Assembly (NCBI GenBank): GCA_018606785.1
Contig: JAGYWH010000099.1
Span: forward strand, 1-30,811
Direction: 5' to 3'
DNA: 30,811 bases
Source: Candidatus Magnetobacterium cryptolimnobacter
GTDB lineage: Bacteria > Nitrospirota > Thermodesulfovibrionia > Thermodesulfovibrionales > Magnetobacteriaceae
Part shown: positions 262 to 30,782 of the stretch, piece after piece
Position numbering within the stretch: position 1 is the first letter of the stretch
Layout of the letters: the number at the start of each line of letters is the position of its first letter
Made by a program: the position numbers and the translations under genes
The notes under the pieces: model-generated
The model's input: the letters and a program-made list of their open reading frames with translations, nothing else
The model's database searches: none
Told to the model about the DNA's origin: nothing

Positions 262-308
262 TGGCCGGAGCGGATCGCACCCGCAACCCCCTTCTCTCTT
301 TTCTTTTT
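262..308 (+). repeat. Degenerate or partial copy (tail module only) of the GC-rich intergenic repeat family
   Basis: ...gcacccgcaacccccttctctcttttctttttt resembles the GCCGCCCC-TTTCTTTCTT tail of full copies. It lies immediately 3' of thiC. Confidence 0.25.
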
Positions 309-1591
309 TAGCCGTAGAGGGCACGCTGCACGGTCTTGATGGCACATAAATCCGCACACATACTGCATACCTCCGATTGTGCAGGCGGCATGTGAGAGCG
401 CATGGCTCGAACCTTGTCGGGGTTAAAGGACAGCGATATCTGCCCCTCCCAATCGAGTTTCTTCCTGTAGCGCGCCATCTGCCTGTCCCTGTCTATGGCT
501 GACTGTATGCCCTTGGAAATGTCCGCTGCATGGGCCGCTATCTTGGACGCTATAACACCCTCGATAACGTCGTCGATATCCGGGAGCCGGACGTGCTCCG
601 ATGGAGTAACGTAACAAAGGAAATCCGCCCCTGCTGCCCCGGCTATGGCCCCTCCGATGGCCGAAGTTATGTGGTCGTAACCAACGCCAACGTCCGTCAC
701 CAACGGCCCCAGGACGTAAAACGGCGCCCCGCTGCACAACGACTTCTGCAGCTTGATGTTCATCTCCACCTGATGCAACGGAACGTGCCCGGGCCCCTCG
801 ATGATGCTCTGAACCCCGTGCTCCAACGCCGTCTTTTGCAATTTGCCAAGCGTGATAAGCTCCTGCACCTGTGCCCTGTCCGTGGCGTCGGCCAGACAGC
901 CCGGACGCAGGCCATCACCAAGGCTCAGGGTGAGGTCGTAGCGTTTGGCAAGCTCAAGAAGGCGGTCGTACTGCTCATAGAGCGGATTTTCTTTGTTGTT
1001 GTAGACCATCCACTCAAGCAGGAGCGACCCGCCGCGACTTACGATATCCAGCTCACGTCTCTGTGCCTTGAGGTGTTCTATGGCGCTGAGTGTCAGCCCA
1101 CAGTGGACGGTGACAAAGTCCACGCCCTCCTTCGCCTGCAACTCTATGACGTCAAAGAGGTCATCGGCGGTCATCTTAAAGATGTTGCCATGTCGCTCGA
1201 TAGTGGCAACGGCGGCCTCGTATATAGGCACCGTGCCAATGGAGACTGGGGATTTTTCGGTGAGACTGCGGCGCAGCTCCCTGATCGGGCCGCCGGTTGA
1301 GAGGTCCATCACCGCATCCGAGCCGTACTTTACCAGCATGGCGAGTTTGCCCAGCTCTTCCTCCACCGATACGTGGTCCTTGGACGTGCCAATGTTGGCG
1401 TTTATCTTTGTAGTCATCCCCTTGCCAATCCCCAGCGGCTTGATGTTGCGTAGCGTGTTTCTTGATACCACGGTGTAACCATTGGCTATATCGGCTGAGA
1501 CTGTCTCTGGTGATAGTCCTTCGGCAATTGCTACCTGTCTGACCTCTTCTGTTATTATACCCTTGCGGGCCTCATCTATTCTCGTAATCAT
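308..1591 (-). CDS. thiC: Phosphomethylpyrimidine synthase ThiC (HMP-P synthase, radical SAM)
   Basis: 427 aa with ThiC-typical motifs (GVDFVTVHCGL; C-terminal CSMCADLCA cluster). ATG preceded by GGAG. The start overlaps the thiE stop (ATGA). Confidence 0.93.
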   Translation of the reverse strand: MITRIDEARKGIITEEVRQVAIAEGLSPETVSADIANGYTVVSRNTLRNIKPLGIGKGMTTKINANIGTSKDHVSVEEELGKLAMLVKYGSDAVMDLSTGGPIRELRRSLTEKSPVSIGTVPIYEAAVATIERHGNIFKMTADDLFDVIELQAKEGVDFVTVHCGLTLSAIEHLKAQRRELDIVSRGGSLLLEWMVYNNKENPLYEQYDRLLELAKRYDLTLSLGDGLRPGCLADATDRAQVQELITLGKLQKTALEHGVQSIIEGPGHVPLHQVEMNIKLQKSLCSGAPFYVLGPLVTDVGVGYDHITSAIGGAIAGAAGADFLCYVTPSEHVRLPDIDDVIEGVIASKIAAHAADISKGIQSAIDRDRQMARYRKKLDWEGQISLSFNPDKVRAMRSHMPPAQSEVCSMCADLCAIKTVQRALYG

Positions 1592-2205
1592 AGTGACTCC
1601 AAATATTTTTTTGTCGCATCAAAGACACTATCACCTGACAGTATCCCAGAAATGACGGCAATGCCGTCAGCCCCGCTCCCCATAACATCCCCAACGTTGT
1701 CCACCTTGATCCCTCCGATGGCAAACACGGGGACCTTAACCTTTTTCCTGACCTTCTGAAGCGTCTCTATTGCCACGGGGGCGCCGTACATCAGCTTGGA
1801 GGGCGTTTCATAGACCGGCCCCAGCGTTATAAAATCGGCCCCCTTTTTGGCCGCATCCGTTGCCTCATCCAGGCCGTGGGTTGACTGACCGATCAACATC
1901 TTATCCCCCACCACCCCACGCACCACCGGGATAGGCATGCTGCTCTGCCCCAGATGAACGCCATCGGCCCCCACCAGGAGCGCCACGTCAACCCTGTCGT
2001 TGATAAACAACCTGGCACCATACCTGGCTGACAGTTCCCTGAGTTTCGTTGCAAGGGCCAACAGCTCCCTGCCGGTCATGTCCTTTTCCCGCAGTTGTAC
2101 GGCCTTAAGCCCCGCCCTGAACGCCTCCTCAACGGCCTCTTCAAGCGGGACTTTGGTGGCCTTCCTGTCCGTGATCAGGCACAGTCTGAAGTCAATCGTC
2201 TGCAT
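1588..2205 (-). CDS. thiE: Thiamine-phosphate synthase ThiE
   Basis: 205 aa, TMP-synthase fold signature (LCLITD...VQLREK...FINDRVDVAL..GADGVHLGQ). Its stop TGA overlaps the thiC ATG. Confidence 0.9.
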   Translation of the reverse strand: MQTIDFRLCLITDRKATKVPLEEAVEEAFRAGLKAVQLREKDMTGRELLALATKLRELSARYGARLFINDRVDVALLVGADGVHLGQSSMPIPVVRGVVGDKMLIGQSTHGLDEATDAAKKGADFITLGPVYETPSKLMYGAPVAIETLQKVRKKVKVPVFAIGGIKVDNVGDVMGSGADGIAVISGILSGDSVFDATKKYLESL

Positions 2206-2214
2206 GGTTTATAG

Positions 2215-2988
2215 TTACAGCAACATGCCGTCAAGTGGACTGCTTGCCGTTGCGTAGAGCTTCTTTGCAATCCGCCCGGCCTTGTGTGCGTATCGTCCGG
2301 CGATGACGGCGTGTTTCATGGCCCCGGCCATGGCGATGGGGTCCTTTGCCCCCGCAATGCCGGTGTTTATGAGCACGGCGTCGCACCCAAGCTCCATGGC
2401 AATGGCCGCATCCGAGGCCGTCCCCACACCGGCGTCAACGACAATCGGAAGGTCTACCGTTTCGATGATTATCTTGATATTGTACGGGTTTCGTATCCCC
2501 AGCCCCGACCCAATGGGTGCTCCCAGCGGCATCACGGCGGCTGCCCCGGCATCGGCCAGGCGTTTTGCCGTTATGGGGTCGTCGCTGGTATAGGGCAGGA
2601 CTATAAAACCCTCCTTGGCAAGCACCTCCGTCGCCTTTAAGAGCGCACACACGTCTGGAAACAGTGTTCTATCGTCGCCGATGACCTCCAGTTTCACGAG
2701 GTCCGTCTCACATGCCTCGCGGCCCAGTCTGGCGTATCTGAGGGCGTCCTCGATCGTGTAGCACCCTGCCGTGTTAGGCAGTATCTTGTACTTTTTGGGG
2801 TCAATGAAGTCAAACAGGGCCGGCTGACTCCTGTCCGTGAGGTTGACCCTGCGTATGGCAACGGTGACAACGTCCGCACCGGATGCCTCTATGGCCCTGG
2901 CTGTTTCCTCGAAGTCCTTGTACTTGCCGGTTCCTACCCACAGCCTTGAACTAAATTCTATGCCTCTGATGACGAGTCTGTCTTGCAT
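2215..2988 (-). CDS. thiG: Thiazole synthase ThiG
   Basis: 257 aa, ThiG signature ([19 protein letters not shown]; TIM barrel; LPYTSDDP). Located 9 bp upstream of thiE on the same strand. Confidence 0.92.
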
Positions 2989-3058
2989 CGCGTCTCCTTC
3001 TTATTGCCCATCAACATAATTTGATATTATGATACGAAAATCTCTCAACTCACGGTCT

Positions 3059-3088: not shown

Positions 3089-3114
3089 GCAGAAAAGGCA
3101 GAAAAAGAAAAGAC

Positions 3115-3209
3115 AAACAAAGAAGGGGGCGGTTCCGCTTCTTTGTCGCTCCAGGACGCCTGGCCCCCCTCAGACCCCCACGCAAGGGGTCACGGACCCC
3201 TTGACCCCT
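3115..3209 (-). repeat. GC-rich bipartite palindromic intergenic repeat, long form (copy R1)
   Basis: Reverse complement reads GGGGTCAAGGGGTCCGTGACCCCTTGCG...GGGGGCCAGGCGTCCTGGAGCGACAAAGAAGCGGAACCGCCCCCTTCTT. It shares the long-form insert with the copy at 4968-5084. Confidence 0.85.
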
Positions 3210-3316
3210 TTATAACCTCATTTCAGCGGTACTCAGAACAGGGGGAGGTTTAGGTATGCGCTCCATTATTTATGCATAGTAACCTTGTAAATTATATTGA
3301 ACACTAATCACAGCCA

Positions 3317-3740: not shown

Positions 3741-3816
3741 TGGATTCCTGCTTTCGCAGGAATGACAATTACAGCCGTTTTCTAAGTGTGTCATTTCTTG
3801 CTTGACCAGGAATCCA
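3741..3816. repeat. MITE-like repeat, family 2 (copy M1): TIR TGGATTCC...GGAATCCA with nested hairpins
   Basis: tggattcctgctttcgcaggaatgaca...gtcatttcttgcttgaccaggaatcca. Closely similar to 21398-21476, with the same TIRs, ATTCCTGC/GCAGGAAT hairpin and internal GTCATT. Confidence 0.7.
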
Positions 3817-4722: not shown

Positions 4723-4967
4723 ACTTATCCGACTATTAAATTTAAGATAATCTGACACTGGAGTACTCGTAACCTGGCTGCTTAACGGCGCAGGCTTTCC
4801 CTCTGGCAAAATCGTTGCAACCGTGCCGGAACGGTGGGATATCAGATGAAAACAGCAATTATGGTTTAACGGACTAAATCAATGCCTGAACCACGAGTTG
4901 ACGGATTAAGTGATTATACTGAAATGACACAGGTTTTTTCAGGCATGATATTTGAGCGTGAAATAAT

Positions 4968-5084
4968 GGGGTCAAGGGGACTTCTTCGTGGCCGGGGCGC
5001 CTCGCCCCTCCCCTTGCGGGGGGTTCTGAAGGGGGCCAGGTGCGACCTGGAGCGACAAGAAGCGGAGCCGCCCCTTTCTTTCTT
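4968..5084 (+). repeat. GC-rich bipartite palindromic intergenic repeat, long form (copy R2)
   Basis: GGGGTCAAGGGGAC[ttcttcgtggccggggcgcctcgcccctc]CCCTTGCGGGGGGTTCTGAAGGGGGCCAGGTGCGACCTGGAGCGACAAGAAGCGGAGCCGCCCCTTTCTTTCTT. Lies between the islet gene and the waaA 3' end. Confidence 0.9.
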
Positions 5085-5176
5085 GTATGCAAGCAATTTT
5101 GATACCCGAAAAAACCCGAATCCGAATCAGTATATAAAGTGATTACTCCTGGTTCAGACAATCTCCATCGAAGGGT

Positions 5177-6619: not shown

Positions 6620-7573
6620 ATGGATACACCAACAGGGTCAGGGATTTACGACAAGATCATCAAGGAGTTGCTTGAGGATATAGAGCAACCCCTGATAGAA
6701 AAGGTCTTGGGGATCAAGGCCGATAAGATAAGCAAGCTCAACGTCATAACGCAACTAACAGACGAGCGTGAGGCGGATTTCGTCATCAAGGTGGAAAACC
6801 GTGATGAACCGTTCTTTATCGCACATGCTGAGATTCAGAGTACCAATGATCCAAAGATGTTAAAGAGGATGCTGCGGTACTTTGTCCATCTCTATTCGGT
6901 ACACGAGGTCATAATAAAGCAGTACGTTGTTTTCATAGGCAAGGACAAGATGGCAATGAACAACGCCCTGGACATGCCAGGCGTTCATTACGAATACAAT
7001 TTGATCGATATCAGAAATATCCCCTGCGAGCGGTTTTTATACTCAGGGGTGCCTAAGGAGATAGTTCTTTCCGTATTGTGTAATAGAGGGGATCGTGATG
7101 AGCGGTCATTTGCGAGGGAGATATTAAAGGAGTTAGTGGTAAACGTCATCGGAGGACTAGACCTGTCGATGTATATAAAGGAAGTAGAGGTCTTTTCAAA
7201 GTTGAGAGACATGCAAAAAATCATAATAGAGGAGGTGGATAAAATGCCAATAGTATACGACCTGGAAACGGATATAAGGTTCATGCAAGGAGTGCAGAAG
7301 GGCATAGAGAATGGCCGCTTGGAAGGTTTGACAGAAGGTCAGGTGAAAGGCCGCTTGGAAGGCCGCCTGGAAGGCTTGACAGAAGGTCAGGTGAAAGGCC
7401 GGTTAGAAGCTATGCACAGCATGATCGAGGTTTTGTTGAGGCGAAAATTTGGCGCAAGAGGTTTATCCCTTATGCCTAAGATCAGAATGAAAGATGATGA
7501 GTCGAGGCTCTATGCAATAACGGATGCGTTGATAACGGCAAATGACATCATGGAGATTGAAGACTTGCTCTGA
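6620..7573 (+). CDS. Rpn-family recombination-promoting nuclease / putative transposase (YhgA-like, PF04754) with a DUF4351-like C-terminus
   Basis: AEIQSTNDPKMLKRMLRY matches the IEHQSSPDKHMPLRMLRY core of E. coli RpnA. The C-terminus has (G-x-L/Q-E-G) repeats followed by LLRRKFG...L...IMEIEDL. The gene is about 46% GC and on the opposite strand, between lpxB and waaA. Confidence 0.75.
   Translation: MDTPTGSGIYDKIIKELLEDIEQPLIEKVLGIKADKISKLNVITQLTDEREADFVIKVENRDEPFFIAHAEIQSTNDPKMLKRMLRYFVHLYSVHEVIIKQYVVFIGKDKMAMNNALDMPGVHYEYNLIDIRNIPCERFLYSGVPKEIVLSVLCNRGDRDERSFAREILKELVVNVIGGLDLSMYIKEVEVFSKLRDMQKIIIEEVDKMPIVYDLETDIRFMQGVQKGIENGRLEGLTEGQVKGRLEGRLEGLTEGQVKGRLEAMHSMIEVLLRRKFGARGLSLMPKIRMKDDESRLYAITDALITANDIMEIEDLL
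7313..7408 (+). repeat. In-frame tandem repeat inside the Rpn-like gene (48 bp x2; 12-bp GGCCGCYTGGAA subunit x4), encoding GRLEGLTEGQVKGRLE twice
   Basis: ggccgcttggaaggtttgacagaaggtcaggtgaaaggccgcttggaa then ggccgcctggaaggcttgacagaaggtcaggtgaaaggccggttagaa. Seen directly in the sequence. Confidence 0.85.
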
Positions 7574-8850: not shown

Positions 8851-8953
8851 AGAAAAGAAGAAAAGAATGGGGACTCCGTCCCCTGACCCCCTGAAAGGTG
8901 GCGGCTCTGCCCCCCCTTTACCCCCCTGCAAGGGAGCCAGCCCCCTTGACCCC
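8851..8953 (-). repeat. GC-rich bipartite palindromic intergenic repeat (copy R3, variant)
   Basis: The minus strand reads GGGGTCAAGGGGGCTGGCTCCCTTGCAGGGGGGTAAAGGGGGGCAGAGCCGCCACCTTTCAGGGGGTCAGGGGACGGAGTCCCCATTCTTTTCTTC. Lies between the aminotransferase stop and the lpxB start. Confidence 0.85.
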
Positions 8954-8968
8954 ATCTTAGCTCACATC

Positions 8969-18750: not shown

Positions 18751-18763
18751 ACCGTTGTCCCGC

Positions 18764-19633: not shown

Positions 19634-19867
19634 GTCAGTCTCCTTAATGGTTCAAGTCAATCTCTGTAATAGGTAAGACCTCTCTCAGTCTCATGTCATC
19701 AACTGATTTAATTTTACGCCCCCGTGCAAAGTTTTTGCAAATACCCGCTCACGGTCTACGTCTGACTGTAGGTAGCCATCAATGGTCCGTCGTGTGATAT
19801 GGCAGAAGTCGGAGGCGACCCCATTTCTTTTCTTGTTTTATCGCGCGTTTCGATCGCGTGCAATACA

Positions 19868-19935
19868 AAGAACAAGGAGGGCGGCTCCGCCCCCTCCTTG
19901 ACCTCCCCCGCAAGGGAACCAGTCCCCTTGACCCC
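19868..19935 (-). repeat. GC-rich bipartite palindromic repeat (copy R6) in the hisF/pseI divergent intergenic region
   Basis: The minus strand reads GGGGTCAAGGGGACTGGTTCCCTTGCGGGGGAGGTCAAGGAGGGGGCGGAGCCGCCCTCCTTGTTCTTT. Confidence 0.9.
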
Positions 19936-20054
19936 ATAAAAATACCACATATCTTGTATTTAATCCAATCGAAATCTGCTATATTATATCTTTTGTTTAC
20001 AGACTAAAATATGTTACCATGTAAGGAGTAAAAGGACATAACGATAGCGATTAC

Positions 20055-21161: not shown

Positions 21162-21397
21162 CCTCCGGGGCATCACAAGGACGGTTATTGAACGCCGCAA
21201 CAACGTCTATAGTTCCTGCTGTACTTTACTCATATCCCTTCAGAAGTAACTCTATTGTCTCAATATCTTCGCCAGTAAGCAACTTTAGATAGCCTGTTAA
21301 TGCTACCAAGTTTGAATATTTGATTTAGGATATCATCAATAATAATTGCTTCTGGTTTTTGTGGAAGCATTTTTAATCTCTATGGTTTCGCACTTTC

Positions 21398-21476
21398 TGG
21401 ATTCCTGCTTACGCAGGAATGACACAGATGGGCGCAAAATACCATTTCTTGTCATTCCCGTGAAAACGGGAATCCA
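21398..21476. repeat. MITE-like repeat, family 2 (copy M2)
   Basis: tggattcctgcttacgcaggaatgacacag...gtcattcccgtgaaaacgggaatcca. Same TIRs and hairpins as 3741-3816. ORF-track ORFs 21346-21630 and 21409-21732 merely span it. Confidence 0.7.
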
Positions 21477-21941
21477 TTTTCAAAAACAGCATAAAAAGCC
21501 AGTTAATAAAAAAGTGCAAAAGTATAGTTACAGTAGAAGAGACTATAAATGCAGAGGCTACAATAAGATTATTAATGGGTTTGACCAGTTGGCAATCACA
21601 AGGCTCAAACAGGAAAAGAACGTCGTCTAAAGTCTGGGATATGACCACCGGCAGGCTCATTTGGACAACAAATCCACGCCTTTTCTGTAAAGGAGCCTGG
21701 ATTGACGGAGTCAGGGAACTATCGGAGAGCAACCGACGCTTACTTTTGCAGAGGGGAGAGATTGGCAGCTAATACATGGTACATTCAGGGTGGAATTACC
21801 AATATCCAGTCCGCAGACATATCTCGGTATGCCCTGGAGGGCGGCCGGATTAATTAGGAACAGCGTCTCTGGCATTTTGGTAACTGTGCCATAGTAACTG
21901 TGCTATAATAAGGCATCGTCGTGTTACTGTCTCGTTGAGGC

Positions 21942-23927
21942 ATGGACGATGTTGGAGACATTCTATGGGAGGTATCTATGTTGTTTGAAGTGTTTGTGAT
22001 CAGTGTTTTTGTGTTAGCAGTGGTAATAATTATTCTCTCCATAAGCATTGTTGGTCCTACGGAGGTGGGATTGGTGATGAAGCGATTTTCGCTGAAGAGT
22101 TTGTCTGAGGACAATCCGGTTGCGTTTTCGGGGGAGGCCGGGTATCAGTCTGAGCTTTTGATGCCTGGGTGGCGTTTTAAGCTCTGGATTCTCTACAGGG
22201 TTACCAGACATCCGTGGGTGCAGGTTCCGGCGGGTGAGATAGGCGTGGTCATAGCGCAGGTGGGCAAGCCCCTGCCCGTGGGCGCCAAGTCGGCCATCTA
22301 CAAGGATGTCTTTGGCAACTTTGGCAACCTTGACGACTTTGTAAACAATGGCGGTCAAAAGGGCGTACAACGCCATGTCCTCTCTCCGGGGACGCTTGCC
22401 CCCATACATCCTGCCGGCTTTCTGGTGATAACCAAAAAGCTCGTCTACGGTGTCCCCGTTGCCCCTGAGATGCAGCGGATGATGCCCCTTACCCCGGACA
22501 AGTTCGGACTGAGACCCGATCAACTAAACGTCGTGCGCATAGAGCCGCTGATGCACGACGACAGGATCACGGACACCATTGGCATCGTGACCACGTATGA
22601 GGGTGACCCCCTGCCCTCAGGCGATATCGCAGGCAGGATAGGCGGTTTCTCCGACATAACGAACCTTGAATCTGCCGAAACCTCAGACCCCGAACTCATG
22701 GAAACCATCCTGGCCAGCAAGAACAACATACACAACAATTATCAGAACTTTCAGGCATTCCTCGATAGCGGTGGCAAAATAGGTCTGCAACACGATCCGC
22801 TCCTGTATGGCGCCTATAACCTCAACCCCTTCCTGGTGAGCACGGAAATGGTGCCCATGCTTGTGGTTGAGCAGGGGCAGGTGGCGGTTGTGAAATCCTA
22901 TGTGGGGTTGCCGTCGGTGGACATCTCAGGGGATGCCTTTAAGTTTGGCTCCATTGTGCGTCCCGGGCACAGAGGAATCTGGCGGGAACCCATGCGCACC
23001 GGCAAGTATCCCCTCAACCCGTACTGCTATAAGCCCGAAATCGTTACCACGTCTATATTGAACCTCAACTGGGCCGAGGCCACCTCTGTCGCACACAAAC
23101 TCGATGAAAACCTCCAGTCTATCATTGCCAAGAGCAAGGAGGGGTTTATTTTCAAGATAGACCTTCAGGTGCAGATACACATCCCGGACTCTCAGGCGCC
23201 CAAGGTCATAAGCATGGTTGGCAGCGAAAATAATCTCGTCAACGAGGTGTTGCAGGCGGCCGTGGGCAATCACTTTAGGGACACGCTGCAGGCCCTCTCT
23301 GCGGTGAGCTTCATAGAGAAAAGGAACACGATACAGGTTCAGGCCACTCAGTACATAGAGGAGAAGCTGCGCGAGTACAACGTCGAAACCAGAGGGGTCT
23401 ACATCCAGGACGTCGAACTGCCCAAGGACCTTGTGGTGGTGCTGACCCAGCGCGAAATAGCCAACCAGGAGATCGAAACCTACAAAAAGCAGCAGGCAGC
23501 CCAAACCCAGCGCGTAGACACGGAAAAGGCTAAAGGCACGGCCGATATGCAGGCCGAATTGGCCAAGGCACAGGTGGGCGTGGATATCGAAACCAACCGC
23601 GCCAGGCAGGTGACCATCCAAGCCGATGCCGCCAAGTACAAAAAGACTGCCGAGGGCGATGGCGAATCCTACTACATCGAAAAGACCGGCACGGCCAAAG
23701 GCGCCGAAATCAGGGCGGTCGGTATGGCAAGGGCAGAGGCCGCACAACAGCTCAAGAACTCAGTCGGTCAATCCGGCACCACCCTGGTCAACGTCATAGA
23801 CGCCCTGATGAAGGGTGACAAGAAGATAGTGCCCGATACCATGGTCGTAGGTGGCAACCTGGGGTCAATTGATGGCCTGGCCGCTTCTCTGATAAAGTTC
23901 CTGGGAGAAAAGAACCTGAAAGTTTAA
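21942..23927 (+). CDS. Flotillin-like SPFH/band-7 family membrane protein (YqiK-like), 661 aa
   Basis: N-terminal TM (VFVISVFVLAVVIIILSI), SPFH domain, and a C-terminal coiled-coil/flotillin region rich in A/E/K/Q (REIANQEIETYKKQQAAQTQRVDTEKAKG...). Extended -10 TGcTATAAT about 33 nt upstream. Confidence 0.8.
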   Translation: MDDVGDILWEVSMLFEVFVISVFVLAVVIIILSISIVGPTEVGLVMKRFSLKSLSEDNPVAFSGEAGYQSELLMPGWRFKLWILYRVTRHPWVQVPAGEIGVVIAQVGKPLPVGAKSAIYKDVFGNFGNLDDFVNNGGQKGVQRHVLSPGTLAPIHPAGFLVITKKLVYGVPVAPEMQRMMPLTPDKFGLRPDQLNVVRIEPLMHDDRITDTIGIVTTYEGDPLPSGDIAGRIGGFSDITNLESAETSDPELMETILASKNNIHNNYQNFQAFLDSGGKIGLQHDPLLYGAYNLNPFLVSTEMVPMLVVEQGQVAVVKSYVGLPSVDISGDAFKFGSIVRPGHRGIWREPMRTGKYPLNPYCYKPEIVTTSILNLNWAEATSVAHKLDENLQSIIAKSKEGFIFKIDLQVQIHIPDSQAPKVISMVGSENNLVNEVLQAAVGNHFRDTLQALSAVSFIEKRNTIQVQATQYIEEKLREYNVETRGVYIQDVELPKDLVVVLTQREIANQEIETYKKQQAAQTQRVDTEKAKGTADMQAELAKAQVGVDIETNRARQVTIQADAAKYKKTAEGDGESYYIEKTGTAKGAEIRAVGMARAEAAQQLKNSVGQSGTTLVNVIDALMKGDKKIVPDTMVVGGNLGSIDGLAASLIKFLGEKNLKV

Positions 23928-23942
23928 AACTCAAGCGTGTGC

Positions 23943-24009
23943 AAGAAGGGGCCAAGGGGGTTAGCAACCCCCCGATATAAAAGGGGGACTGGTCCCCTGC
24001 AATGCCCCA
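23943..24009 (-). repeat. Divergent copy (R7) of the GC-rich palindromic repeat between convergent flotillin and MCP genes
   Basis: GGGGCCAAGGGGGTTAGCAACCCCCC...AAGGGGGACTGGTCCCCTGCAATGCCCC. Contains the AAGGGGGAC-TG-GTCCCC hairpin and a second GGGGGTT-AGC-AACCCCC hairpin. Likely a bidirectional terminator. Confidence 0.65.
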
Positions 24010-24039
24010 TCGAAGTGCCGCATAGTTTATAGCGCAGTC

Positions 24040-25656
24040 CTACTCTAACAGCTTTGAAGTGTGGTTGCGGCCAACACTGAACTGACTGACGATATCCCGC
24101 AGACGCTTTGAGAGCGTCACCAGATGCGAGGATGCCTGTGACACAACATCCGTACACACGGTGGTATCCCTTGAACTCGTTGCTATTGTTTCTATATCCC
24201 TTGTGACGTTGTCCGCAACCGAAGTCATCTCATCCGTGGCAGAGGCAATGCTTGACAACACCTCCTGGAGCCTGGTAACACTGGATAAGATATCCTCCAG
24301 CGATTTACCAGCTTGCATGGAGTATGAGACACCGTTACTGACCCTCTGGAGACTACCCTGCATGGAGGTAATGACCTTGATAGTCTCCCCCTGCATTGTG
24401 GTTATCATGGCGCTTATTTCGGTTGTAGCCTTTGAGGTTTTTTCGGCGAGCTTTCTTACTTCGTCTGCAACAACGGCAAACCCTCTGCCCTGTTCCCCTG
24501 CCCTGGCCGCCTCTATGGCCGCATTTAAGGCCAGGAGGTTGGTCTGATCCGCTATGTCATTGATGACCTTGACGATGTCACCTATCTGGTTTGAGCGGTT
24601 GCCAAGGGACCCCACTAAAGAGGCCGATTCCCTGACCGTTTCATCTATCATCTTTACTTCATCTACAGTTTGTCCTACCACCTTTGAGCCTTTGCGTGCT
24701 ATTTCGACGGTTTTGCTTGCCGACAACGCTATATCTGATATGTTCTTTGCTATGTCTGAGACCGTCTGGGACATCTCCTCTATGGAAGTGGCTATCTGGG
24801 TGGTGCGTTCTGCCTGGTTGACTACGTCGGTTGACATCTTGCCGGAGCTGCTTTTAAGGCTGCCGCTGGCATCTGACATGGCATCGGCGGCATCCTTGAC
24901 CTCGCTTATAATGTCCTTGAGGCTTGTCACCATATGGTTAAGCCCTTGCGATAGCTTTCCTACCTCGTCCTGGGTATCGTATTTAAAACGAACCTTCAGA
25001 TCTCCCGATGCGATCAACTCCAGGTCCCTTGCCAGATCAACAAGAGGCTGGTGGGTAAACTTAAACGTAAACGTGAATATAAATATTACACTTACCAGTC
25101 CAAGCGCTCCCAGGGCTATAAAGATGTACTCTATTCTCTTAAGGCTTCCCAGCGTCCTTGCCATTGAAATAGTGATGCTGACAGCCCCCAACACCTCTCC
25201 CTCTCGGACATTGTGACATCCCAGGCAGTTCTTCCCCATGAAGCTCTTACTTGCAACGTAGGGATAAACGCCACGTATGTTCTCGCCCTCTATCACAACC
25301 TTCTCCGAGCCGGTAGATATCACATCTCGTTCAACGGGGTCTGCGGCATACTCATCGGCGTTTCCCTTGCCGTAGTCCTTGTCAAGGGCGTCGGTTCTGA
25401 GCAGTTTTATCTTGACTATGTTGTTCATCTGCTCGATAAACGGCCCTTTACTTTCCTTGATGTTACCTGCCAGCATCATCGTGGTGAGGGCATTTAACAC
25501 GGTATCCTTGTATCCTCTGATGGCGCCGTCTCGAATCTCGTTTATCACGAGGTGCTTTGACAGCTTCACCGTGACGACCACCGTCGCAATGATGCCGATA
25601 AATGTTATTAATACGATTGGCACTAAGGTCTTTGTTCCTATGGATACGTTCTTCAT
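24040..25656 (-). CDS. Methyl-accepting chemotaxis protein with a periplasmic sensor domain carrying a CxxCH c-type heme-binding motif
   Basis: Two TM helices bracket a ~145-aa periplasmic domain containing [14 protein letters not shown] region and a canonical MCP signalling domain follow ([32 protein letters not shown]). Confidence 0.85.
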
Positions 25657-25912
25657 AACAATACTCCTTAATAAAGGTTGTCTAATGTTACACCAATAAG
25701 AGGTTTATAATCCTTGTCTGTCCTAATAAACTACTGCTATATAATATCACGATTTTCTTAATTGTGCAAACACGGCGTTTGGTTCCCTGAATTTGACCAT
25801 TGACAACATCATGGGCTTTATGATAGATTGAAACGTAAGATTTTATCAAAACTGACAGAGGACAACAGGGTAAGTAGTCGAGCATAAACATGTATAACAT
25901 CACCAGCCTTAT

Positions 25913-25994
25913 GGGGTCAAGTGGACTGGTCCCCTTAGCAGGGGGGATCTGAAGGGGGGGCAGCGCCGCCCCATTCTTTTTCTTTATTCTTCTT
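25913..25994 (+). repeat. GC-rich bipartite palindromic repeat (copy R8) immediately upstream of the 25998 start codon
   Basis: GGGGTCAAGTGGACTGGTCCCCTTAGCAGGGGGGATCTGAAGGGGGGGCAGCGCCGCCCCATTCTTTTTCTTTATTCTTC, then tgaaATG. Confidence 0.9.
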
Positions 25995-25997
25995 GAA

Positions 25998-27530
25998 ATG
26001 AAGGCCATATATCCAGACAAGGGCGGGTTCCTGGCTGCCGTGGCGGATGGCTCTATCCCTGCCCTTTACAGGGAACTGACCTACAGACGGCCATCACTGT
26101 ACTACTCTGTCCTGAGACAGAAGAACTCCTTTATCCTTGAGAGCGTGCGCGGGTCAGTCAACACAGCCAGGTACTCCTTCATCGGCTTTGAACCTTACAT
26201 GACGGTCAAGGCAAATGGCTCTTTTGTTGAGGTACAAAAGGACGGCAAGAGGAGTCTGTCGTCAAAGGACCCGTTGACCAAACTCAGGGAGCTTATCGGC
26301 GGCTACAAGCAACGCATCTCAGGCAACCTGCCACCGTTTCAGGGTGGTGCAGTGGGGCTGTTGAGCTACGACCTGGTGCGCAGCATCGAGGACATCCCCA
26401 ACACGGCAATAAACGATCTGGACATCCCCCTGTTGCACTTCTTCATGATAGACAGGCTCATAGCGGTAGACCACGTCAGGGAGGTGGCGTGGTTGATTGT
26501 CTGCCCCGGCATCAGGCAAGACGGCCCCGTCTTTAATGCAGCCAAGATCAACTGGAGCCGCCAGTATGATGAAACGGCAGACTTTATCAATAACATGGCG
26601 TCCTTTTTGGAGGACAAGCTATCCGGTGTTGCCCCCACTGACATCATAAAACCTGCCCCTGAGCGCCATAGAACAATTGAGATCGTTCACGAAACAACAA
26701 AAGAACGCTACATGGGTATGGTCGGAAGGACACTGCAATACATAGGAGCCGGAGACATCTTTCAGGCCAATCTTTCGCAGAGGCTCTCGGCACGCATCGG
26801 GGATACGGACCCCTGGCAGATATACACCCTGCTGTCAACGGTGAATCCGTCGCCGTTTGCGTGTTTCCTGGATTTTGGTGACTATCAGATCGTCAGTTCT
26901 TCGCCGGAGAGGCTGGTCAGGGTCATGGCTAAACCCGACGGCTCATTGGTTGTCGATACGCGGCCCATTGCCGGGACGAGACCACGTGGCAAGGACGTTG
27001 GTGAGGATGATGCGTTACGCAGCGATCTCCTGCTCAACGAAAAGGAGTGTGCCGAACACATCATGCTCATTGATCTGGAGCGCAACGACCTGGGAAGGGT
27101 ATGCAGGTATGGCACGGTCGGCGTGGATGAGTTGATGATCACGGAGGACTACTCGCACGTCATCCACATCGTATCCAACGTCAGGGGCGTCCTCAACAGT
27201 GGTAAGGATTGCATAGACGTGATCAGGGCCGTCTTTCCCGGGGGGACTATCACGGGTGTACCCAAGGTGCGCTGTATGCAGATAATTGACGAGCTCGAAC
27301 CGGTTGCACGCGGCCCATACACGGGATCGGTGGGATATATCGGTTTTGCTCAAAATATGGATATCAATATAATCATACGCAGCTTTGTTGTCAAGGACGG
27401 TTACGCTTACGTTCAGGCAGGGGCCGGGATCGTAGCAGACTCAGACCCCGAAAGAGAGTACTACGAAACACTTAGCAAGGCAGAAGCCTTAATAAAAACA
27501 TTAAAGATTCTCTATGGAGGTAGCCTATGA
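25998..27530 (+). CDS. Chorismate-utilising enzyme of the TrpE/PabB family (second copy in window; aminodeoxychorismate synthase component I or a related ADC/isochorismate-type synthase)
   Basis: 510 aa. PIAGTRPRG, ...EKECAEHIMLIDLERNDLGRV...GVPKVRCMQIIDELE, collinear with TrpE at 14109-15593 but clearly paralogous. No glutaminase subunit adjacent. Confidence 0.8.
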   Translation: MKAIYPDKGGFLAAVADGSIPALYRELTYRRPSLYYSVLRQKNSFILESVRGSVNTARYSFIGFEPYMTVKANGSFVEVQKDGKRSLSSKDPLTKLRELIGGYKQRISGNLPPFQGGAVGLLSYDLVRSIEDIPNTAINDLDIPLLHFFMIDRLIAVDHVREVAWLIVCPGIRQDGPVFNAAKINWSRQYDETADFINNMASFLEDKLSGVAPTDIIKPAPERHRTIEIVHETTKERYMGMVGRTLQYIGAGDIFQANLSQRLSARIGDTDPWQIYTLLSTVNPSPFACFLDFGDYQIVSSSPERLVRVMAKPDGSLVVDTRPIAGTRPRGKDVGEDDALRSDLLLNEKECAEHIMLIDLERNDLGRVCRYGTVGVDELMITEDYSHVIHIVSNVRGVLNSGKDCIDVIRAVFPGGTITGVPKVRCMQIIDELEPVARGPYTGSVGYIGFAQNMDINIIIRSFVVKDGYAYVQAGAGIVADSDPEREYYETLSKAEALIKTLKILYGGSL

Positions 27531-27901
27531 GTGACAGGATACTATTGTCAACCGCAGATGTGAAACTAAAGGCAGAATTGAACAACAGCAAAACGGCGGA
27601 TACCTTCCGCCTGCTCTTGCCGCTGGAGGTGAGGATGGAGCGCTGGGGCGATGAGTACTACGGCGATTGTGGCATCAACGTCGATATCGCAGGGGATGCA
27701 AAGGAGGTCATGGAGGTGGGCGAGCTTGCGGTCTGGCCAATTGGCAATGCGCTCTGCATCTTTTTTGGCCCCACCCCGGTAAGCATAGGCGATGAACCAC
27801 GCGCCGCATCCAAGGTCAACCCCATCGGAAAACTGATCGACACCCCGGAACCACTTAAAAAACTCGCCGGCACCATCAGCGTTAAGATATCAGCCATATA
27901 A
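27527..27901 (+). CDS. Small cyclophilin-like-fold protein (DUF3830-like), translationally coupled (ATGA overlap) to the TrpE/PabB paralog
   Basis: 124 aa. ...AELNNSKTADTFRLLLPLEV...W..GDEYYG......GELAVWPIGNALCIFFGPTP matches my recollection of the cyclophilin-like DUF3830 family. Assigned from memory of that family; not searched. Confidence 0.5.
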   Translation: MSDRILLSTADVKLKAELNNSKTADTFRLLLPLEVRMERWGDEYYGDCGINVDIAGDAKEVMEVGELAVWPIGNALCIFFGPTPVSIGDEPRAASKVNPIGKLIDTPEPLKKLAGTISVKISAI

Positions 27902-27984
27902 CGAGTCTGGCTCATTTTGTTAGCCGTAAAAAATTTATGCACTCGGGCAATTGGGTGCATAAACTTTTGGTGGGTAAGATAAAC

Positions 27985-28083
27985 GGGGTCAAGGGGACTG
28001 GTCCCCTTGCAGGGGAGGTCAAGGAGGGGGCGGAGCCGCCCTTCTTGTAGGGGGTAGGGGGCGAAGCCCCCATTCTTTCTTTG
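27985..28083 (+). repeat. GC-rich bipartite palindromic repeat (copy R9) with a duplicated B-module; probable terminator of the upstream two-gene unit
   Basis: GGGGTCAAGGGGACTGGTCCCCTTGCAGGGGAGGTCAAGGAGGGGGCGGAGCCGCCCTTCTTGTAGGGGGTAGGGGGCGAAGCCCCCATTCTTTCTTTG. Confidence 0.9.
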
Positions 28084-28128
28084 ACGAAGCCACCAACTAC
28101 TTTCTTATGCACCCGGGCAATTCGGTCT

Positions 28129-28163
28129 CTTGACAAATCAACGCCATAAGTTTTACTATCCTG
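28129..28163 (+). promoter_or_regulatory. Putative sigma70 promoter for the substrate-binding protein gene
   Basis: TTGACA (28129-28134), then 18 nt, then TACTAT. GAGAGG Shine-Dalgarno directly before the ATG at 28169. Confidence 0.3.
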
Positions 28164-28168
28164 AGAGG

Positions 28169-29341
28169 ATGAAAAGAATTCCGATAATACTCTTTATGCT
28201 TATAGCCTTGCAGTTGGCAAGCTGTGCCAAGAAGGACAATCAAGTGCAGCCGGATGTTATCAAGGTAGGCGTGGTGGCAGAGCTGACGGGAGACATTCCT
28301 GCGGTGGGTGCATCGTGCAAGAGTGCGGCAGAGATGGCGGTTGCAGCGGTCAATGACGCCGGCGGGATATCCGTTGGTGGTAAAAAGTACAAGGTGCAGA
28401 TGTTTATCGAGGACAACGCCGGCAGGGCCGAGCAGTCTGCATCAGCCGTGCAAAAGCTCATCACGCAGCGCGGTGTTGTGGCCATCATAGGGCCTAATTC
28501 AAGCACCGGGGCAATACCGGCAGCCGAAATAGCCGAGGCCTCAAAGGTCACACTCATCACCCCGTGGTCAACCAACCCAAAGACGACCCTTGATTCCAGG
28601 ACCGGCAAACACAAGCAATACGTCTTTCGGGCCTGCTACCTCGACACGTTCCAGGGACAGGTGCTTGCCTCCTTTGCACGTGATGGCCTCAAGGCAAAGA
28701 CGGCAGCCGTGCTCTTTGACGTGGCGGCAGAGGCACTCAAGGGACAGGCCGAGGTCTTTAAGGGAACGTTTGAGCAAAAAGGTGGCAAAATCACTGCCTA
28801 TGAGACATACTCAACCGGAGACAGGGACTTTTCGGCACAACTGACCAAAATCAAACAGGACGCCCCGGATGTGTTGTTTCTGCCTGCATATTATAGCGAT
28901 GTCCCGTTGGTGGTGCAACAGGCACACAGATTGGGATTGTCGATGCCGTTTCTGGGAAGCGATGCCTGGGCAAGCTCCGAACTTACAAAGCTGTGCGCGG
29001 CAGACTGCGATGGCTACTTCTTTAGCAGTCATTACCTGTCGGAGTCAACGTCTGATATTTCCCAGCGGTTTGTCAAGGCATACAACGCTCTCTACAAGCA
29101 GGCCCCCGATGACGTGGCTGCCCTGACATACGATGCCTTTGGTGTCCTCTTCCAGGCGCTGGGCAAGCTCCAGAGGGTCGATACCGAGTCGGTCAGAAAC
29201 GCCTTGGCCTCTACGACTCAGTACGCGGGGGTCACCGGTAACATCAGGTACGTTGAAGGCTCGGGCGACCCTATTAAGGGTGCTGTCATGTTACAGATAA
29301 AAGACGGTAAATTCCAGTGGCACTCGCAGGCAAATCCGTAG
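28169..29341 (+). CDS. ABC transporter periplasmic substrate-binding lipoprotein, LivK/branched-chain amino acid-binding (Peripla_BP_6) family
   Basis: Lipoprotein signal MKRIPIILFMLIALQLASC (lipobox LASC). VIKVGVVAELTGDIPAVG...AIIGPNSS...ITPWSTNP is typical of Leu/Ile/Val-binding-protein-family SBPs. The ORF-track start at 28130 is an upstream TTG. Confidence 0.8.
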   Translation: MKRIPIILFMLIALQLASCAKKDNQVQPDVIKVGVVAELTGDIPAVGASCKSAAEMAVAAVNDAGGISVGGKKYKVQMFIEDNAGRAEQSASAVQKLITQRGVVAIIGPNSSTGAIPAAEIAEASKVTLITPWSTNPKTTLDSRTGKHKQYVFRACYLDTFQGQVLASFARDGLKAKTAAVLFDVAAEALKGQAEVFKGTFEQKGGKITAYETYSTGDRDFSAQLTKIKQDAPDVLFLPAYYSDVPLVVQQAHRLGLSMPFLGSDAWASSELTKLCAADCDGYFFSSHYLSESTSDISQRFVKAYNALYKQAPDDVAALTYDAFGVLFQALGKLQRVDTESVRNALASTTQYAGVTGNIRYVEGSGDPIKGAVMLQIKDGKFQWHSQANP

Positions 29342-29393
29342 GCAATGATAACATACTTCGATTGGATTAAATACAAGACATAGGCATTTTTAT

Positions 29394-29462
29394 GGGGTCA
29401 AGGGGACTGGTCCCCTTGCGGGGGGTTCTGAAGGGGGGCGGAGCCGCCCCTTTCTTTTTTTT
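29394..29462 (+). repeat. GC-rich bipartite palindromic repeat (copy R10); its B-module plus T-run forms a textbook intrinsic terminator for the SBP gene
   Basis: GGGGTCAAGGGGACTGGTCCCCTTGCGGGGGGTTCTGAAGGGGGGCGGAGCCGCCCCTTTCTTTTTTTT. Confidence 0.9.
29438..29462 (+). terminator. Rho-independent terminator (GGGGGGCGGAGCCGCCCC hairpin + T8) downstream of the SBP gene
   Basis: Perfect GC stem GGGGCGG/CCGCCCC with a 2-nt loop, followed by TTTCTTTTTTTT. Confidence 0.55.
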
Positions 29463-29469
29463 ATGTTGA

Positions 29470-30666
29470 ATGTATGACAATTGCAACGGGCCATTTTCCA
29501 TGAAGGTAGCCGTGTACGGTTCGCTGGGGATTGCGCGGCACGTCCTGGATGCTGCCAGGGTGCGTGGCGTTGAGGTTGCCGCTGTCGTGGATGCCGACCG
29601 GCAGCGACACGGACAGACGCTCTGCGATTACACGGTTGCACCGGTGAGCAGGCTCAGGGAGGTCAGCTTTGACGGCATCGTACTTGCCACGTTTGATTGG
29701 CAGGCGGCCAGGGATGCCATCTCAGGCGTCGCCGGATACACACATGAAGCGCTGTATGACGACGTATTCTGGGAGCCGTTCTTCATCCAGGCAGAGCCGA
29801 CGACAAAATGCACCTACTCCTGCCCCTCATGCAGCAGGGACACCCTGCCCGATGGCAGGAGAAACCGAAACATGTCCTTTGACGACTTTGAACGACTGCT
29901 CACCCGCTTTCCAACCGTAAAGCGCCTGCAACTCCAGGGACTTGGCGAACCCACCCTCAACCCCGCACTCATCGAAATGCTCAGGTTGAGCAAGGACAGG
30001 GGAATCAACACATCGATAACAACCAACGCCTCTGCCCTGCGCCGTAACATCGAAGGAGGTCTCCTGAAACACCTCGACAAACTGATCGTCTCCATAGACA
30101 CGCAGGGACAACGAGACATCAGGCAGCGGTATCTCACGGAGATCGCACCAGCGTTCAGCGCCCGGACGGCGGGAGCCCCCAGGGTGGTCTTTAACTTTGT
30201 AGTCGTTGGTGACAACGTTGATGAGCTTGCGTTGCTGTACGACTTTGTGACCGAGGCCTCACCCGATCAACTGCACATTCAGTTTGTAGAGAACTGGTAC
30301 ATAGAAGGGCAGGAGGGGTTTGAATCGATGTCCGCCTTTGTGGGCAAATCTTTAGAGGTCGAAAGTGAGATCACAGCGCAGGTAAGGGCATACAGCGCCA
30401 GGCTTGCCAAGTCCGGGATAGCGGTTACGTATGGCGGACCACAGCGCAGACGAGGGGTGTGTTGGTGGCCGTTTTTTGGATGCTTTATCTCCTGCGATGG
30501 CTTCCTCACACCATGCTGCATACGGATGCACCCGGAGGTCTTCAACATGGGCAATGCCCTGGAAGAAGACATTGGAGGTATCTGGTATGGCCCGGCATAT
30601 GCCGAACTTCGTCGCAGCATGTTCTCAACCAACAACAGCATCCTCTGTGGCACCTGCCCGCAGTGA
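29470..30666 (+). CDS. Radical SAM / SPASM-domain protein with an N-terminal Rossmann-like (Gfo/Idh/MocA-type) half-domain
   Basis: N-terminus MKVAVYGSLGIARHVLDA...GVEVAAVVDADRQRHG...FDGIVLATF resembles a GFO_IDH_MocA NAD-binding half. CTYSCPSC (Cx3Cx2C) forms the radical SAM cluster motif. The C-terminal Cys-rich region CWWPFFGCFISCDG...PCC...ILCGTCP is SPASM/twitch-like. An alternative start is the ATG at 29500. Confidence 0.7.
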   Translation: MYDNCNGPFSMKVAVYGSLGIARHVLDAARVRGVEVAAVVDADRQRHGQTLCDYTVAPVSRLREVSFDGIVLATFDWQAARDAISGVAGYTHEALYDDVFWEPFFIQAEPTTKCTYSCPSCSRDTLPDGRRNRNMSFDDFERLLTRFPTVKRLQLQGLGEPTLNPALIEMLRLSKDRGINTSITTNASALRRNIEGGLLKHLDKLIVSIDTQGQRDIRQRYLTEIAPAFSARTAGAPRVVFNFVVVGDNVDELALLYDFVTEASPDQLHIQFVENWYIEGQEGFESMSAFVGKSLEVESEITAQVRAYSARLAKSGIAVTYGGPQRRRGVCWWPFFGCFISCDGFLTPCCIRMHPEVFNMGNALEEDIGGIWYGPAYAELRRSMFSTNNSILCGTCPQ

Positions 30667-30710
30667 AGGAAAAAACGGATAACTATGATCGTAATAGTTC
30701 ACCCCCCTAA

Positions 30711-30782
30711 GAAGAAGGAAAGAAAGGGGCGGCTCCGCCCCCCTTCAGAACCCCCTGCAAGGGGGCCAGCCCCCTTGACCCC
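30711..30782 (-). repeat. GC-rich bipartite palindromic repeat (copy R11) downstream of the radical SAM gene
   Basis: The minus strand reads GGGGTCAAGGGGGCTGGCCCCCTTGCAGGGGGTTCTGAAGGGGGGCGGAGCCGCCCCTTTCTTTCCTTCTTC. Confidence 0.9.

Follow-up and report, generated by a model that had tools for sequence, protein, structure and literature searches.

Gene Content of the Window and Copies of the Repeat

The stretch of DNA analysed here (the window) is a complete contig of 30,811 nt from Candidatus Magnetobacterium (Nitrospirota), and its proteins are identical or near-identical to entries of Ca. Magnetobacterium casense and of sp. LHC-1. The gene content is that of an ordinary chromosome: thiC-thiE-thiG, kdtA, lpxB, degT, trpD-G-E, hisF and neuB, together with genes for an MCP, a second trpE-like protein, a solute-binding protein and a radical SAM/SPASM protein. 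Scattered among these genes there is a strand-asymmetric repeat of 65–120 nt, built of two hairpin modules (A and B) and present as nine clear copies, one half copy, one copy of a sister type and one doubtful trace. Allowing up to one mismatch, we counted 11 occurrences of the 12-mer at its head, GGGGTCAAGGGG, where shuffled sequence predicts 0.17, and the core of module B, GGGGCRGMGCCGCC, gives 10 matches (7 sites, some of them palindromic double hits) against 0.04 expected; these counts are so far above expectation that chance is excluded as the origin of the repeats. A tRNA/tmRNA scan of the window returned nothing, no Rfam family matched it at E values up to 1, a canonical copy had no BLAST match in plasmid and phage collections, and full-text literature searches with the element sequences and for Magnetobacterium repeats gave nothing relevant.

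A covariance model was built on 6 window copies and 8 copies from related genomes, with the two-hairpin structure taken from their alignment, and was run unfiltered across the whole window, where it recognised nine bipartite copies and no further full copy. The best match (17348–17424, 99 bits) is the canonical copy at 17349–17420 (+), antisense at the 3' end of the open reading frame (ORF) of a TM2 protein; this core is enclosed by an outer inverted repeat with its left arm (GTATCCTCT..GCATGGTA) at 17322–17345 (+) and its right arm (TACCATGC..AGAGGATAC) at 17421–17444 (+). Canonical copies also lie at 29394–29462 (+; match 29392–29466, 94 bits), sense in the gap between the solute-binding-protein and radical SAM/SPASM genes; at 30711–30782 (−; match 30710–30784, 93 bits), antisense to both neighbouring genes; at 19868–19935 (−; match 19862–19937, 89 bits), between the divergent hisF and neuB; and, with a CAGCG loop variant, at 25913–25994 (+; match 25911–25988, 77 bits), in a divergent gap where the tail comes to 3 nt from the start of the second trpE-like gene. 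The 30711 copy is 95% complementary to the 29394 copy, and the pair brackets the radical SAM gene as inverted repeats. A 45-nt extension on the head side is common to the 19868 copy (19868–19982 with the extension), the 29394 copy (extension 29348–29393, 29348–29462 in all) and loci of the related genome nMYbin3.

The remaining bipartite copies are longer. A third hairpin follows A and B at 8851–8953 (−; match 8892–8955, 59 bits), sense in the degT/lpxB gap, where it is GGGGACGGAGTCCCC, and at 27985–28083 (+; match 27983–28049, 77 bits), sense in the gap between the cyclophilin-like and solute-binding-protein genes, where it is GGGGGCGAAGCCCCC. The copy at 3115–3209 (−; match 3110–3210, 55 bits), sense in the hyp128/thiG gap, combines a short hairpin A (GGGGTC..GACCCC variant) with a long-form B that holds a CCAGG..CCTGG insert, and the one at 4968–5084 (+; match 4966–5090, 51 bits), antisense to kdtA, has a 24-nt hairpin in the A loop and a 26-nt insert in B. 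The modular variation proposed in a first-pass annotation of this DNA, with an insert splitting module B in the two long forms, is borne out by these copies, the insert being of about 26 nt. The 4968 copy has flanks of about 55 nt (left) and 50 nt (right) that make up an imperfect inverted repeat and are found again at a short-form copy in nMYbin3 (L086). We considered L086 as an orthologue of the 4968 locus and ruled it out; as its flanking genes differ, the shared 50-nt flanks are part of a longer repeat unit.

Three sites depart from the bipartite form. At 18153–18204 (+) only module B and the tail are present (module B match 18129–18191, 26 bits, E 3e-6), antisense and abutting the 3' end of a CAAX protease gene; in the MYR-1 orthologue of this gene the hairpin is absent at the gene end. 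The sister-subfamily copy at 23943–24009 (orientation ambiguous) lies between the convergent SPFH and MCP genes and consists of hairpins GGGGAC-CA-GTCCCC and GGGGGTTGCTAACCCCC within GGGGC..GCCCC, modules that it shares with M. casense L068; the model gives it an E value of only 0.45. At 262–308 (+) we found a pyrimidine tail and a stretch like the hairpin-A loop insert, with an E value of 2.4 that is not significant. The coordinates first proposed for the family therefore stand as repeats, except that 23943–24009 belongs to the sister type and 262–308 remains below significance.

Architecture of the Unit and Conservation of Base Pairing

The window was compared with loci of related Magnetobacterium genomes, among them MYR-1, M. 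bavaricum, nMYbin3, nDJH13bin1 and M. casense. The unit reads AT-GGGGT-(hairpin A)-C-RGGGG-linker-(hairpin B)-pyrimidine tail. At its head, GGGGT follows a pentamer rich in A and T, whose position −2 is A in 36 of 39 copies; hairpin A is CAAGGGG-N / N'-CCCCTTG around CTGG; the connecting stretch is C, RGGGG and then TCTGA, TCAAG or TTCTGA; hairpin B has a 7-bp outer stem, a two-G bulge and, in its centre, the invariant GCGGAGCCGC; the tail is a pyrimidine run of variable length (TTCTTTCTT...), found on one strand only. Each hairpin is thus preceded by an unpaired tag, (A)TGGGGT for A and RGGGG for B. The variants, namely a 24–28 nt hairpin in the A loop (4968), a CCAGG..CCTGG hairpin plus AGCGACAAGAA within B (3115, 4968) and a third tagged hairpin ahead of the tail (8851, 27985), recur at unrelated loci of the other genomes and are therefore subfamilies rather than one-off mutations.

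Base pairing was evaluated on 56 copies from the window and five Magnetobacterium genomes. Standard pairs fill 96.4% of the cells, compared with 88.8% when the letters of the 3' side were shuffled and 48–77% when the partners were slid by 1–3 columns, and the value rises to 97.2% once copies from other phyla are added. Changes on both sides were observed in 11 of 17 pairs: for example, pair 102/184 is AU in 26 copies and GC in 24, and pair 15/74 is AU in 29, GC in 13 and UA in 4. The compensatory pattern is also visible in a plain MAFFT alignment, in which the A:T pair of stem B shifts in register on both arms (GGAGGG/CCCTCC, GGGAGG/CCTCCC, AAGGGG/CCCCTT) and stem A is closed by A:T, G:C or T:A. 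The hairpins are maintained by selection on base pairing, and the tags and the loops (CTGG, GCGGAGCCGC) are constant in sequence. Minimum-free-energy folding of single copies gave z-scores from −0.1 to −2.2 and is uninformative, because the runs of G and C permit many folds; the hairpin of module B has a folding energy of about −16 kcal/mol.

Position and Orientation Relative to Genes

All the copies in the window are intergenic and occur in either orientation, as had been noted at first reading; they occupy long gaps at operon borders, at a spacing of 0.8–8.4 kb and with genes in between. Four of 11 copies are sense behind a gene (3115, 8851, 27985, 29394), four are antisense (4968, 17349, 18153, 30711), two lie in divergent gaps (19868, 25913) and one in a convergent gap (23943); in the loci of relatives, where the split rests on heuristic ORF calls, we counted 13 sense, 8 antisense, 8 convergent and 8 divergent copies. 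Since the orientation relative to genes is unbiased, the elements are not dedicated terminators, and the suggestion that the family shapes transcription termination, which would concern only 4 of the 11 window copies, is not sustained by these counts. Hairpin B with its tail does pass a simple terminator scan, and the sense copies behind genes probably stop or stabilise transcripts as a side effect that is not the family's reason to exist.

The same data bear on a reading of the elements as cis-acting RNA signals, that is, as intrinsic terminators or 3'-end stabilisers that set operon boundaries. A hairpin B followed by TTCTTTCTT suits a terminator, and elements account for 6 of the 8 best terminator-like sites between 17 and 30.8 kb; the four sense copies of the window lie 13–106 nt past a stop codon, and the elements are more conserved than the intergenic DNA around them. 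The tail is placed on a single strand, and the stems contain 22 G:T against 7 A:C combinations, an excess due largely to the outermost pair, which adjoins the T-rich tail. However, besides the unbiased orientation in the window and in relatives, no U tract follows the last hairpin of the reverse strand, several copies stop 3–20 nt short of a start codon, and neither a constant 5' tag, nor a constant loop, nor a second hairpin upstream is required of a terminator. We consider this explanation unlikely.

The ORFs that read through copies are artefacts, in agreement with what was first suspected for the 5' extension of lpxB and for the C-terminus of the TM2 protein. LpxB has 378 aa in three relatives, MYR-1 and M. 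bavaricum among them, with the conserved start MPTRIMIIAGE, and this conserved length and start place the start of lpxB in the window at 8832. In the TM2 ORF the final ~30 codons are the sequence of the 17349 element. The TM2 ORF of the window (17329–17961) encodes 210 aa; in an assembly of 99.9% identity (L118) the gene is annotated with 332 aa and reads through the element and beyond, which may reflect a shift of frame in a run of G or another choice of start.

History of the Occupied Sites

The same species is represented by three other assemblies, which align to the window over 10–13 kb at 99.3–99.9% identity and with zero gaps, and a comparison of these assemblies for insertion polymorphism gave no indels. 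Between such close strains there are too few single-nucleotide polymorphisms to distinguish the density in the elements from that in the rest of the sequence. More distant genomes are instructive at two sites. The site upstream of lpxB is occupied in four genomes in four configurations: A, B and a third hairpin in the window; the same module set with different stems in nMYbin3; an A with a different loop insert and a long B in M. bavaricum; and a long B with hairpin A missing in MYR-1. Upstream of the second trpE-like gene (trpE2) there is a short A in the window, a short A with other stems in nDJH13bin1 and a long A in MYR-1. The flanking DNA has diverged at both sites, and around the one upstream of trpE2 it is barely alignable between species. 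Occupied sites persist through speciation while their modules change, and this combination of persistent sites and module turnover fits gene conversion, recombination or module-level indels better than repeated independent insertion.

The family extends well beyond this locus, as the first-pass annotation had expected, with copies on many contigs of the five related genomes. Their density, 10–12 per 30.8 kb in the window, is about 1 per 3–10 kb in loci of relatives that were not picked for repeats. In related assemblies several contigs end in or beside copies (L118, L119, L120, L121, L166, L167): L118 and L119 end within the 27985 copy, L120 has copies at both ends, and in M. bavaricum all 3 of the 3 contigs examined end in a copy. 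Contig ends at copies are expected if the family is abundant genome-wide. Two copies lie inside a prophage region of one Magnetobacterium genome (L137), hence the family can enter recently acquired DNA.

About one third of the cores lie within longer inverted flanks. The arms GTATCCTCT..GCATGGTA and TACCATGC..AGAGGATAC hold the 17349 core in the window and TGTC-tagged repetitive extragenic palindromes (REPs) in MYR-1, and since the same arms hold a different REP family there, these mosaics resemble bacterial interspersed mosaic elements (BIMEs).

The TGTC-tagged sequence is a second, unrelated hairpin repeat, TGTC-ATTCCTGC-GAAA-GCAGGAAT-CCA, which occurs in head-to-head pairs. In the window it lies at 3744–3767 (−) and ~3786–3815 (+, degenerate), and at 21401–21424 (−) and 21450–21473 (+); in MYR-1 it is also present between CAAX and trpE (L160 ~10620–10760). 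With its TGTC tag, a stem from AT and a CCA tail, it fits the CGTC-tagged superfamily (PMC3733652).

The long life of the sites, together with the unbiased orientation, is also compatible with structural or protein-binding DNA motifs (of nucleoid-protein, gyrase, IHF or G-quadruplex/triplex type) selected by the host and not made by transposition, whose role would be independent of orientation. On one of its strands the element has four runs of 4–6 G, in the two tags and in stems A and B, and it contains a purine/pyrimidine mirror tract. Nevertheless, the compensatory changes show that hairpin pairing is conserved and not the number of G runs, hairpins and a quadruplex would compete for the same runs, and the copies in a prophage and the swapping of modules better suit a sequence that spreads; we find a host-selected motif decidedly improbable.

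Rearranged Junctions and Gene Cassettes

The window was aligned to contig 3 of MYR-1, at ~90–95% nucleotide identity. Elements lie at, or at most 180 nt from, 7 of 10 gene junctions that changed between the two genomes and at none of the 7 conserved ones (hypergeometric p ~0.006). The elements coincide with junctions at which cassettes have been gained or lost: a restriction-modification (RM) system, the solute-binding-protein gene and a TM2-PNP block. In MYR-1 an MmeI-like RM gene lies between degT and lpxB, flanked by A-type and B-type elements, and no RM system is present at this spot in the window. MYR-1 lacks the solute-binding-protein gene, which two direct copies flank in the window, and retains one element at that place; it also lacks the TM2-hyp126-PNP block, which lies between elements in the window.

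Two different RM systems were observed at the spot upstream of the lpxB-associated element, the MmeI-like one in MYR-1 (L162 11246–13780) and an N6_N4 methylase with ResIII in M. bavaricum (L167 3341–7941); this spot looks like an insertion hot spot for defence genes. In MYR-1 the radical SAM orthologue is followed, some 1 kb downstream, by a diversity-generating-retroelement-like pair (bAvd and a reverse transcriptase; L164 12295–14437), which the window lacks. A further cassette of the window, a HepT/MNT toxin-antitoxin pair (12253–12896), lies between direct repeats (12138–12185/12956–13003 and 12866–12940/13488–13562, with identities of 92% and 84%) which duplicate the two ends, 3' and 5', of Uma2, the gene next to it. 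The toxin-antitoxin genes thus seem to lie within a gutted second copy of Uma2; MYR-1 lacks this cassette, and there the blocks adjoin, overlapping by 41 nt.

A gene framed by two direct copies (27985 and 29394) in one genome and replaced by a single element in another, and two different RM systems that adjoin the lpxB-upstream element in MYR-1 and M. bavaricum, recall the attC sites of integrons, at which a site-specific recombinase inserts and excises genes between two sites, and which are themselves folded single-strand hairpins with constant unpaired bases. This reading is very improbable, as no integrase or recombinase gene is present in the window or in the syntenic loci, the cassettes are not arranged in co-oriented arrays and most copies flank core housekeeping genes. 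Moreover, the solute-binding-protein gene has no flanking elements in M. bavaricum, and the element left in MYR-1 differs in module type from both window copies, therefore it is not a simple product of their recombination. It is hardly credible, finally, that each element is a tiny gene for a small RNA of ~60 nt, made of a −10-like box (consensus T-A-T-W-A-T in the 6 nt ahead of GGGG, with the frequent A at −2 noted above), a GGG discriminator-like run, two hairpins and a terminator-like hairpin end with a T tract, because there is no conserved −35 box or TG extension and no Rfam match, such hexamers are common in the AT-rich intergenic background, and the AT ahead of GGGG persists in GC-rich phyla, where it resembles part of the tag.

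Similar Sequences in Other Phyla

Species-representative genomes were scanned with GGGGTCAAGGGG-N4-9-CCCCTTGC, a pattern that does not demand a second hairpin, and at least 116 loci were found. Among the matches listed, 19 are of the Magnetobacterium type; the others belong to Ruminococcaceae/Oscillospiraceae and other Clostridia, Acetobacteraceae and other Alphaproteobacteria, Desulfovibrionaceae, Synergistaceae, Ktedonobacteraceae/Anaerolineae (Chloroflexi), Magnetococcales, Myxococcota and a few further groups. Most of the listed loci of other phyla show a hairpin, then C-GGGGT, then a second hairpin nn-GGGGC-NNN-GCCCC-n'n', often followed by a pyrimidine-rich or GGTCTTA tail. In the listed loci the covariance model finds extra copies that had not been seeded (E 1e-5 to 1e-7), some of them in head-to-head pairs, and the orientation relative to ORFs is unbiased in other phyla too. 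At the gathering score, an Rfam search of 18 loci of other phyla returned only an unrelated THF riboswitch. Sixteen viral contigs contain the pattern as well.

The exact 26-nt hairpin A of Magnetobacterium is found in 22 metagenome contigs of 42–69% G+C, from unrelated organisms, none of which has a module B of the Magnetobacterium type. Since the class is large, such exact matches need not mean horizontal transfer, and the likeness across phyla may reflect either common descent or convergence on a common partner.

Two further types of sequence emerged from the scans. Gut Firmicutes and phage contigs share a longer unit, ttgacaatg-GGGGTCAAGGGGC..GCCCCTTGC-gttctcttggggg..aaagggggccattctctcacgtgagagaatggccccc (L011, L023, L039, L047, L088, L098, L122, L124, L125, L129–L131, L136), which looks like a promoter with a structured RNA, or like the end of a mobile element. 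A metagenome contig of 3262 nt (L150) has a hairpin-bearing sequence of ~130 nt at both ends, on one strand (75–100, 3208–3233), an arrangement that would fit a small circular replicon, and L140, L142, L147 and L156 contain near-identical units.

Search for a Mobilising Enzyme

Genes for Y1 transposases, the enzymes associated with REPs, were searched for with IS200 TnpA, the RayT of E. coli and seven TIRYT sequences (from the supplement of PMC3733652) as tblastn probes, and with a scan for the HUH..W..Y motif. The RayT query is 99% identical to database entries, and the probes detect three control genes for REP-associated tyrosine transposases (RAYTs). One apparent match, in L105, proved to be HisB and was discarded. 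An all-vs-all ORF BLAST over the 116 listed loci revealed, as genes recurrently linked to copies, only those for histidine kinases, ABC transporters and aminotransferases.

The RAYT-like TIRYT genes (TnpA-Y1 subclass 2.1) are flanked by inverted repeats that share GGGG[AT][CG]A[CG]; the subclass is present in 14.9% of strains and its REP partner is not known, some of the flanking repeats are palindromic and multi-copy, and subclass 2.1.2 is patchy across phyla (PMC3733652, PMC6006769). Of the 8 positions of this motif, 7–8 are matched by the head of the element, GGGGTCAA (or, in part of the copies, GGGGTCAG), and 7 by its stem GGGGACTG. On the other hand, the terminal inverted repeat (TIR) of Geobacter pickeringii is ACGGGGACACCATACTTAA and that of Citrifermentans bemidjiense is a 50-nt palindrome, AAAAGGGGACAGGCTAC...; both share only GGGGAC with module A and give no match to the covariance model, and no TIRYT gene lies near the sampled copies. 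Because the two TIRYT loci have only GGGGAC in common with the element, the link to TIRYT is a resemblance at the level of the motif.

Other Features of the Window

Some observations concern sequences unrelated to the family. The ORF 6620–7573 (+), for a 317-aa protein with no Pfam match, contains tandem coding repeats of 12/36 nt (GGCCGCTTGGAAGG...) at 7277–7408. A direct repeat of 74% identity (16580–16681 and 17021–17122) suggests that the AT-rich gap 16849–17320 holds a decayed paralogue of the 126-aa ORF, and an inverted match of 71% (14443–14615 and 27024–27196) corresponds to two anthranilate-synthase-I-like paralogues. When 17527–30811 is compared with L117 and L119 of the same species, mismatches amount to ~0.7–0.8% in coding sequence and to 0.06–0.09% in intergenic DNA other than elements, which reverses the usual pattern; clustered recombination tracts in genes may explain the coding excess.

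Interpretation

On balance, and with moderate confidence, we interpret the family as REP/BIME-like dispersed repeats, i.e., as short, non-coding, non-autonomous mosaic elements of the Candidatus Magnetobacterium chromosome. The evidence comes from the compensatory pairing of the hairpins around constant tags and loops, the dispersal over related genomes, with contigs that end at copies, the unbiased use of every class of intergenic gap, the long-held sites with changing modules, the mosaics with other motifs, the association with changed junctions, and the copies in prophage DNA. In this respect the first-pass annotation, which had seen a dispersed palindromic repeat of the REP kind, neither coding nor CRISPR-like (the copies are irregularly spaced and in both orientations), has proved sound; its alternative label of miniature inverted-repeat transposable element (MITE) has not, as the core lacks terminal inverted repeats and a target-site duplication and shows no insertion polymorphism between strains.

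As for mechanism, the hairpins would act on single-stranded DNA, where a protein would recognise the constant tag and loops as Y1/HUH enzymes do with REPs, and the family could have spread by such a route of single-strand DNA and protein recognition. Gene conversion or recombination between copies may then keep the family homogeneous, and recombination between them might make the elements hot spots of rearrangement.

Several points weigh against the REP/BIME-like interpretation. No clean pair of a filled and an empty site was found, hence mobility itself is not demonstrated, and neither the motif scan nor tblastn revealed a Y1, RAYT or TIRYT transposase gene in 1.28 Mb of element-bearing DNA. 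The GTAG or CGTC tag that defines the catalogued REPs is absent, and head-to-tail units, the form of the present family, are rare in known REP families. Pairing is favoured by the way in which the covariation alignments were made, namely by fitting to the model. The link with changed junctions is partly trivial, as the conserved junctions are operon-internal gaps of 0–41 nt, too short for an element. Lastly, the one-strand tail and the excess of G:T (22) over A:C (7) in the stems point to a strand-specific, perhaps RNA-level, constraint, which a pure DNA parasite does not need.

A broader proposal is that the Magnetobacterium elements and their look-alikes form a third cross-phylum superfamily, distinct from the GTAG and CGTC ones and uncatalogued in Rfam, in which two or more hairpins stand head-to-tail, each after an (AT)GGGGT tag, with a pyrimidine-rich tail at the 3' end; it would be propagated through single-stranded DNA and act as a hot spot for defence and accessory cassettes; TIRYT would be one candidate enzyme, because the repeats flanking TIRYT genes share the GGGGWSAS motif. 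We put this forward tentatively, as a possibility and not as the probable outcome. If true, a third tag class would stand beside the two known ones, and orphan Y1/HUH enzymes would have a candidate DNA partner. Independently of this, a model of the element helps assembly and annotation, since copies break the assemblies of uncultured magnetotactic Nitrospirota and yield false ORF extensions such as those of lpxB and TM2. For REP biology, the family offers long-held sites, module turnover and a coincidence with places where cassettes are gained and lost, all in a phylum with no earlier descriptions of REP-like elements.

Comparison with Known Systems

Among the known systems, CRISPR arrays differ in having regular direct repeats with unique spacers, neither of which is seen here. 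With intrinsic terminators the elements share a GC-rich hairpin B followed by a T-rich run, and simple scans pick them up; unlike terminators, they are placed without regard to gene ends, are conserved in primary sequence and have an extra upstream hairpin and extra tags. Like the MITEs Correia, RUP and Nezha they are small, non-coding, multi-copy and intergenic, and some copies lie between longer imperfect inverted repeats, but their core shows neither terminal inverted repeats nor a target-site duplication, and close strains do not differ in the presence or absence of copies. We know of no related full-length insertion sequence.

The closest parallels are the REPs and BIMEs of enterobacteria and pseudomonads, with their REPINs and the RAYT/TnpA-REP enzymes. 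The elements share with them short imperfect palindromes in either orientation, an unpaired tag at the foot of the hairpin, long vertical persistence at the same sites and mosaics with other motifs, and they would be expected to number hundreds of extragenic copies. As in REPs, the hairpin palindrome is kept by compensatory change (96–97% paired against 48–77% with slid partners), and, as in BIMEs, short and long modules, third hairpins, head extensions and outer inverted arms appear in varying combinations. They differ in the tag, which is (AT)GGGGT and not GT[AG]G, in the pyrimidine tail and in the unit itself, an obligate head-to-tail pair of two different hairpins instead of an inverted doublet (REPIN; head-to-head or tail-to-tail); only a few head-to-head pairs of whole units occur, in relatives (L006, L086). 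Moreover, they are equally frequent between divergent genes, whereas REPs favour convergent and co-directional gaps, and no RAYT was found in the sampled DNA.

The GTAG- and CGTC-tagged REP superfamilies consist of a tag, a stem of 8–9 bp, a short loop, the second strand of the stem and a short tail; the CGTC REPs have no known transposase, head-to-tail dimers are 'negligible' in both, and Nitrospirota and Firmicutes go unmentioned in the text of that study (Di Nocera et al. 2013, PMC3733652). The present family has the same architecture and likewise appears as lineage-specific variants of a cross-phylum scheme, but head-to-tail dimers are its rule and its main form bears neither tag. Thus, the family has a REP/BIME architecture and yet falls outside both catalogued superfamilies by its tag, which is new.

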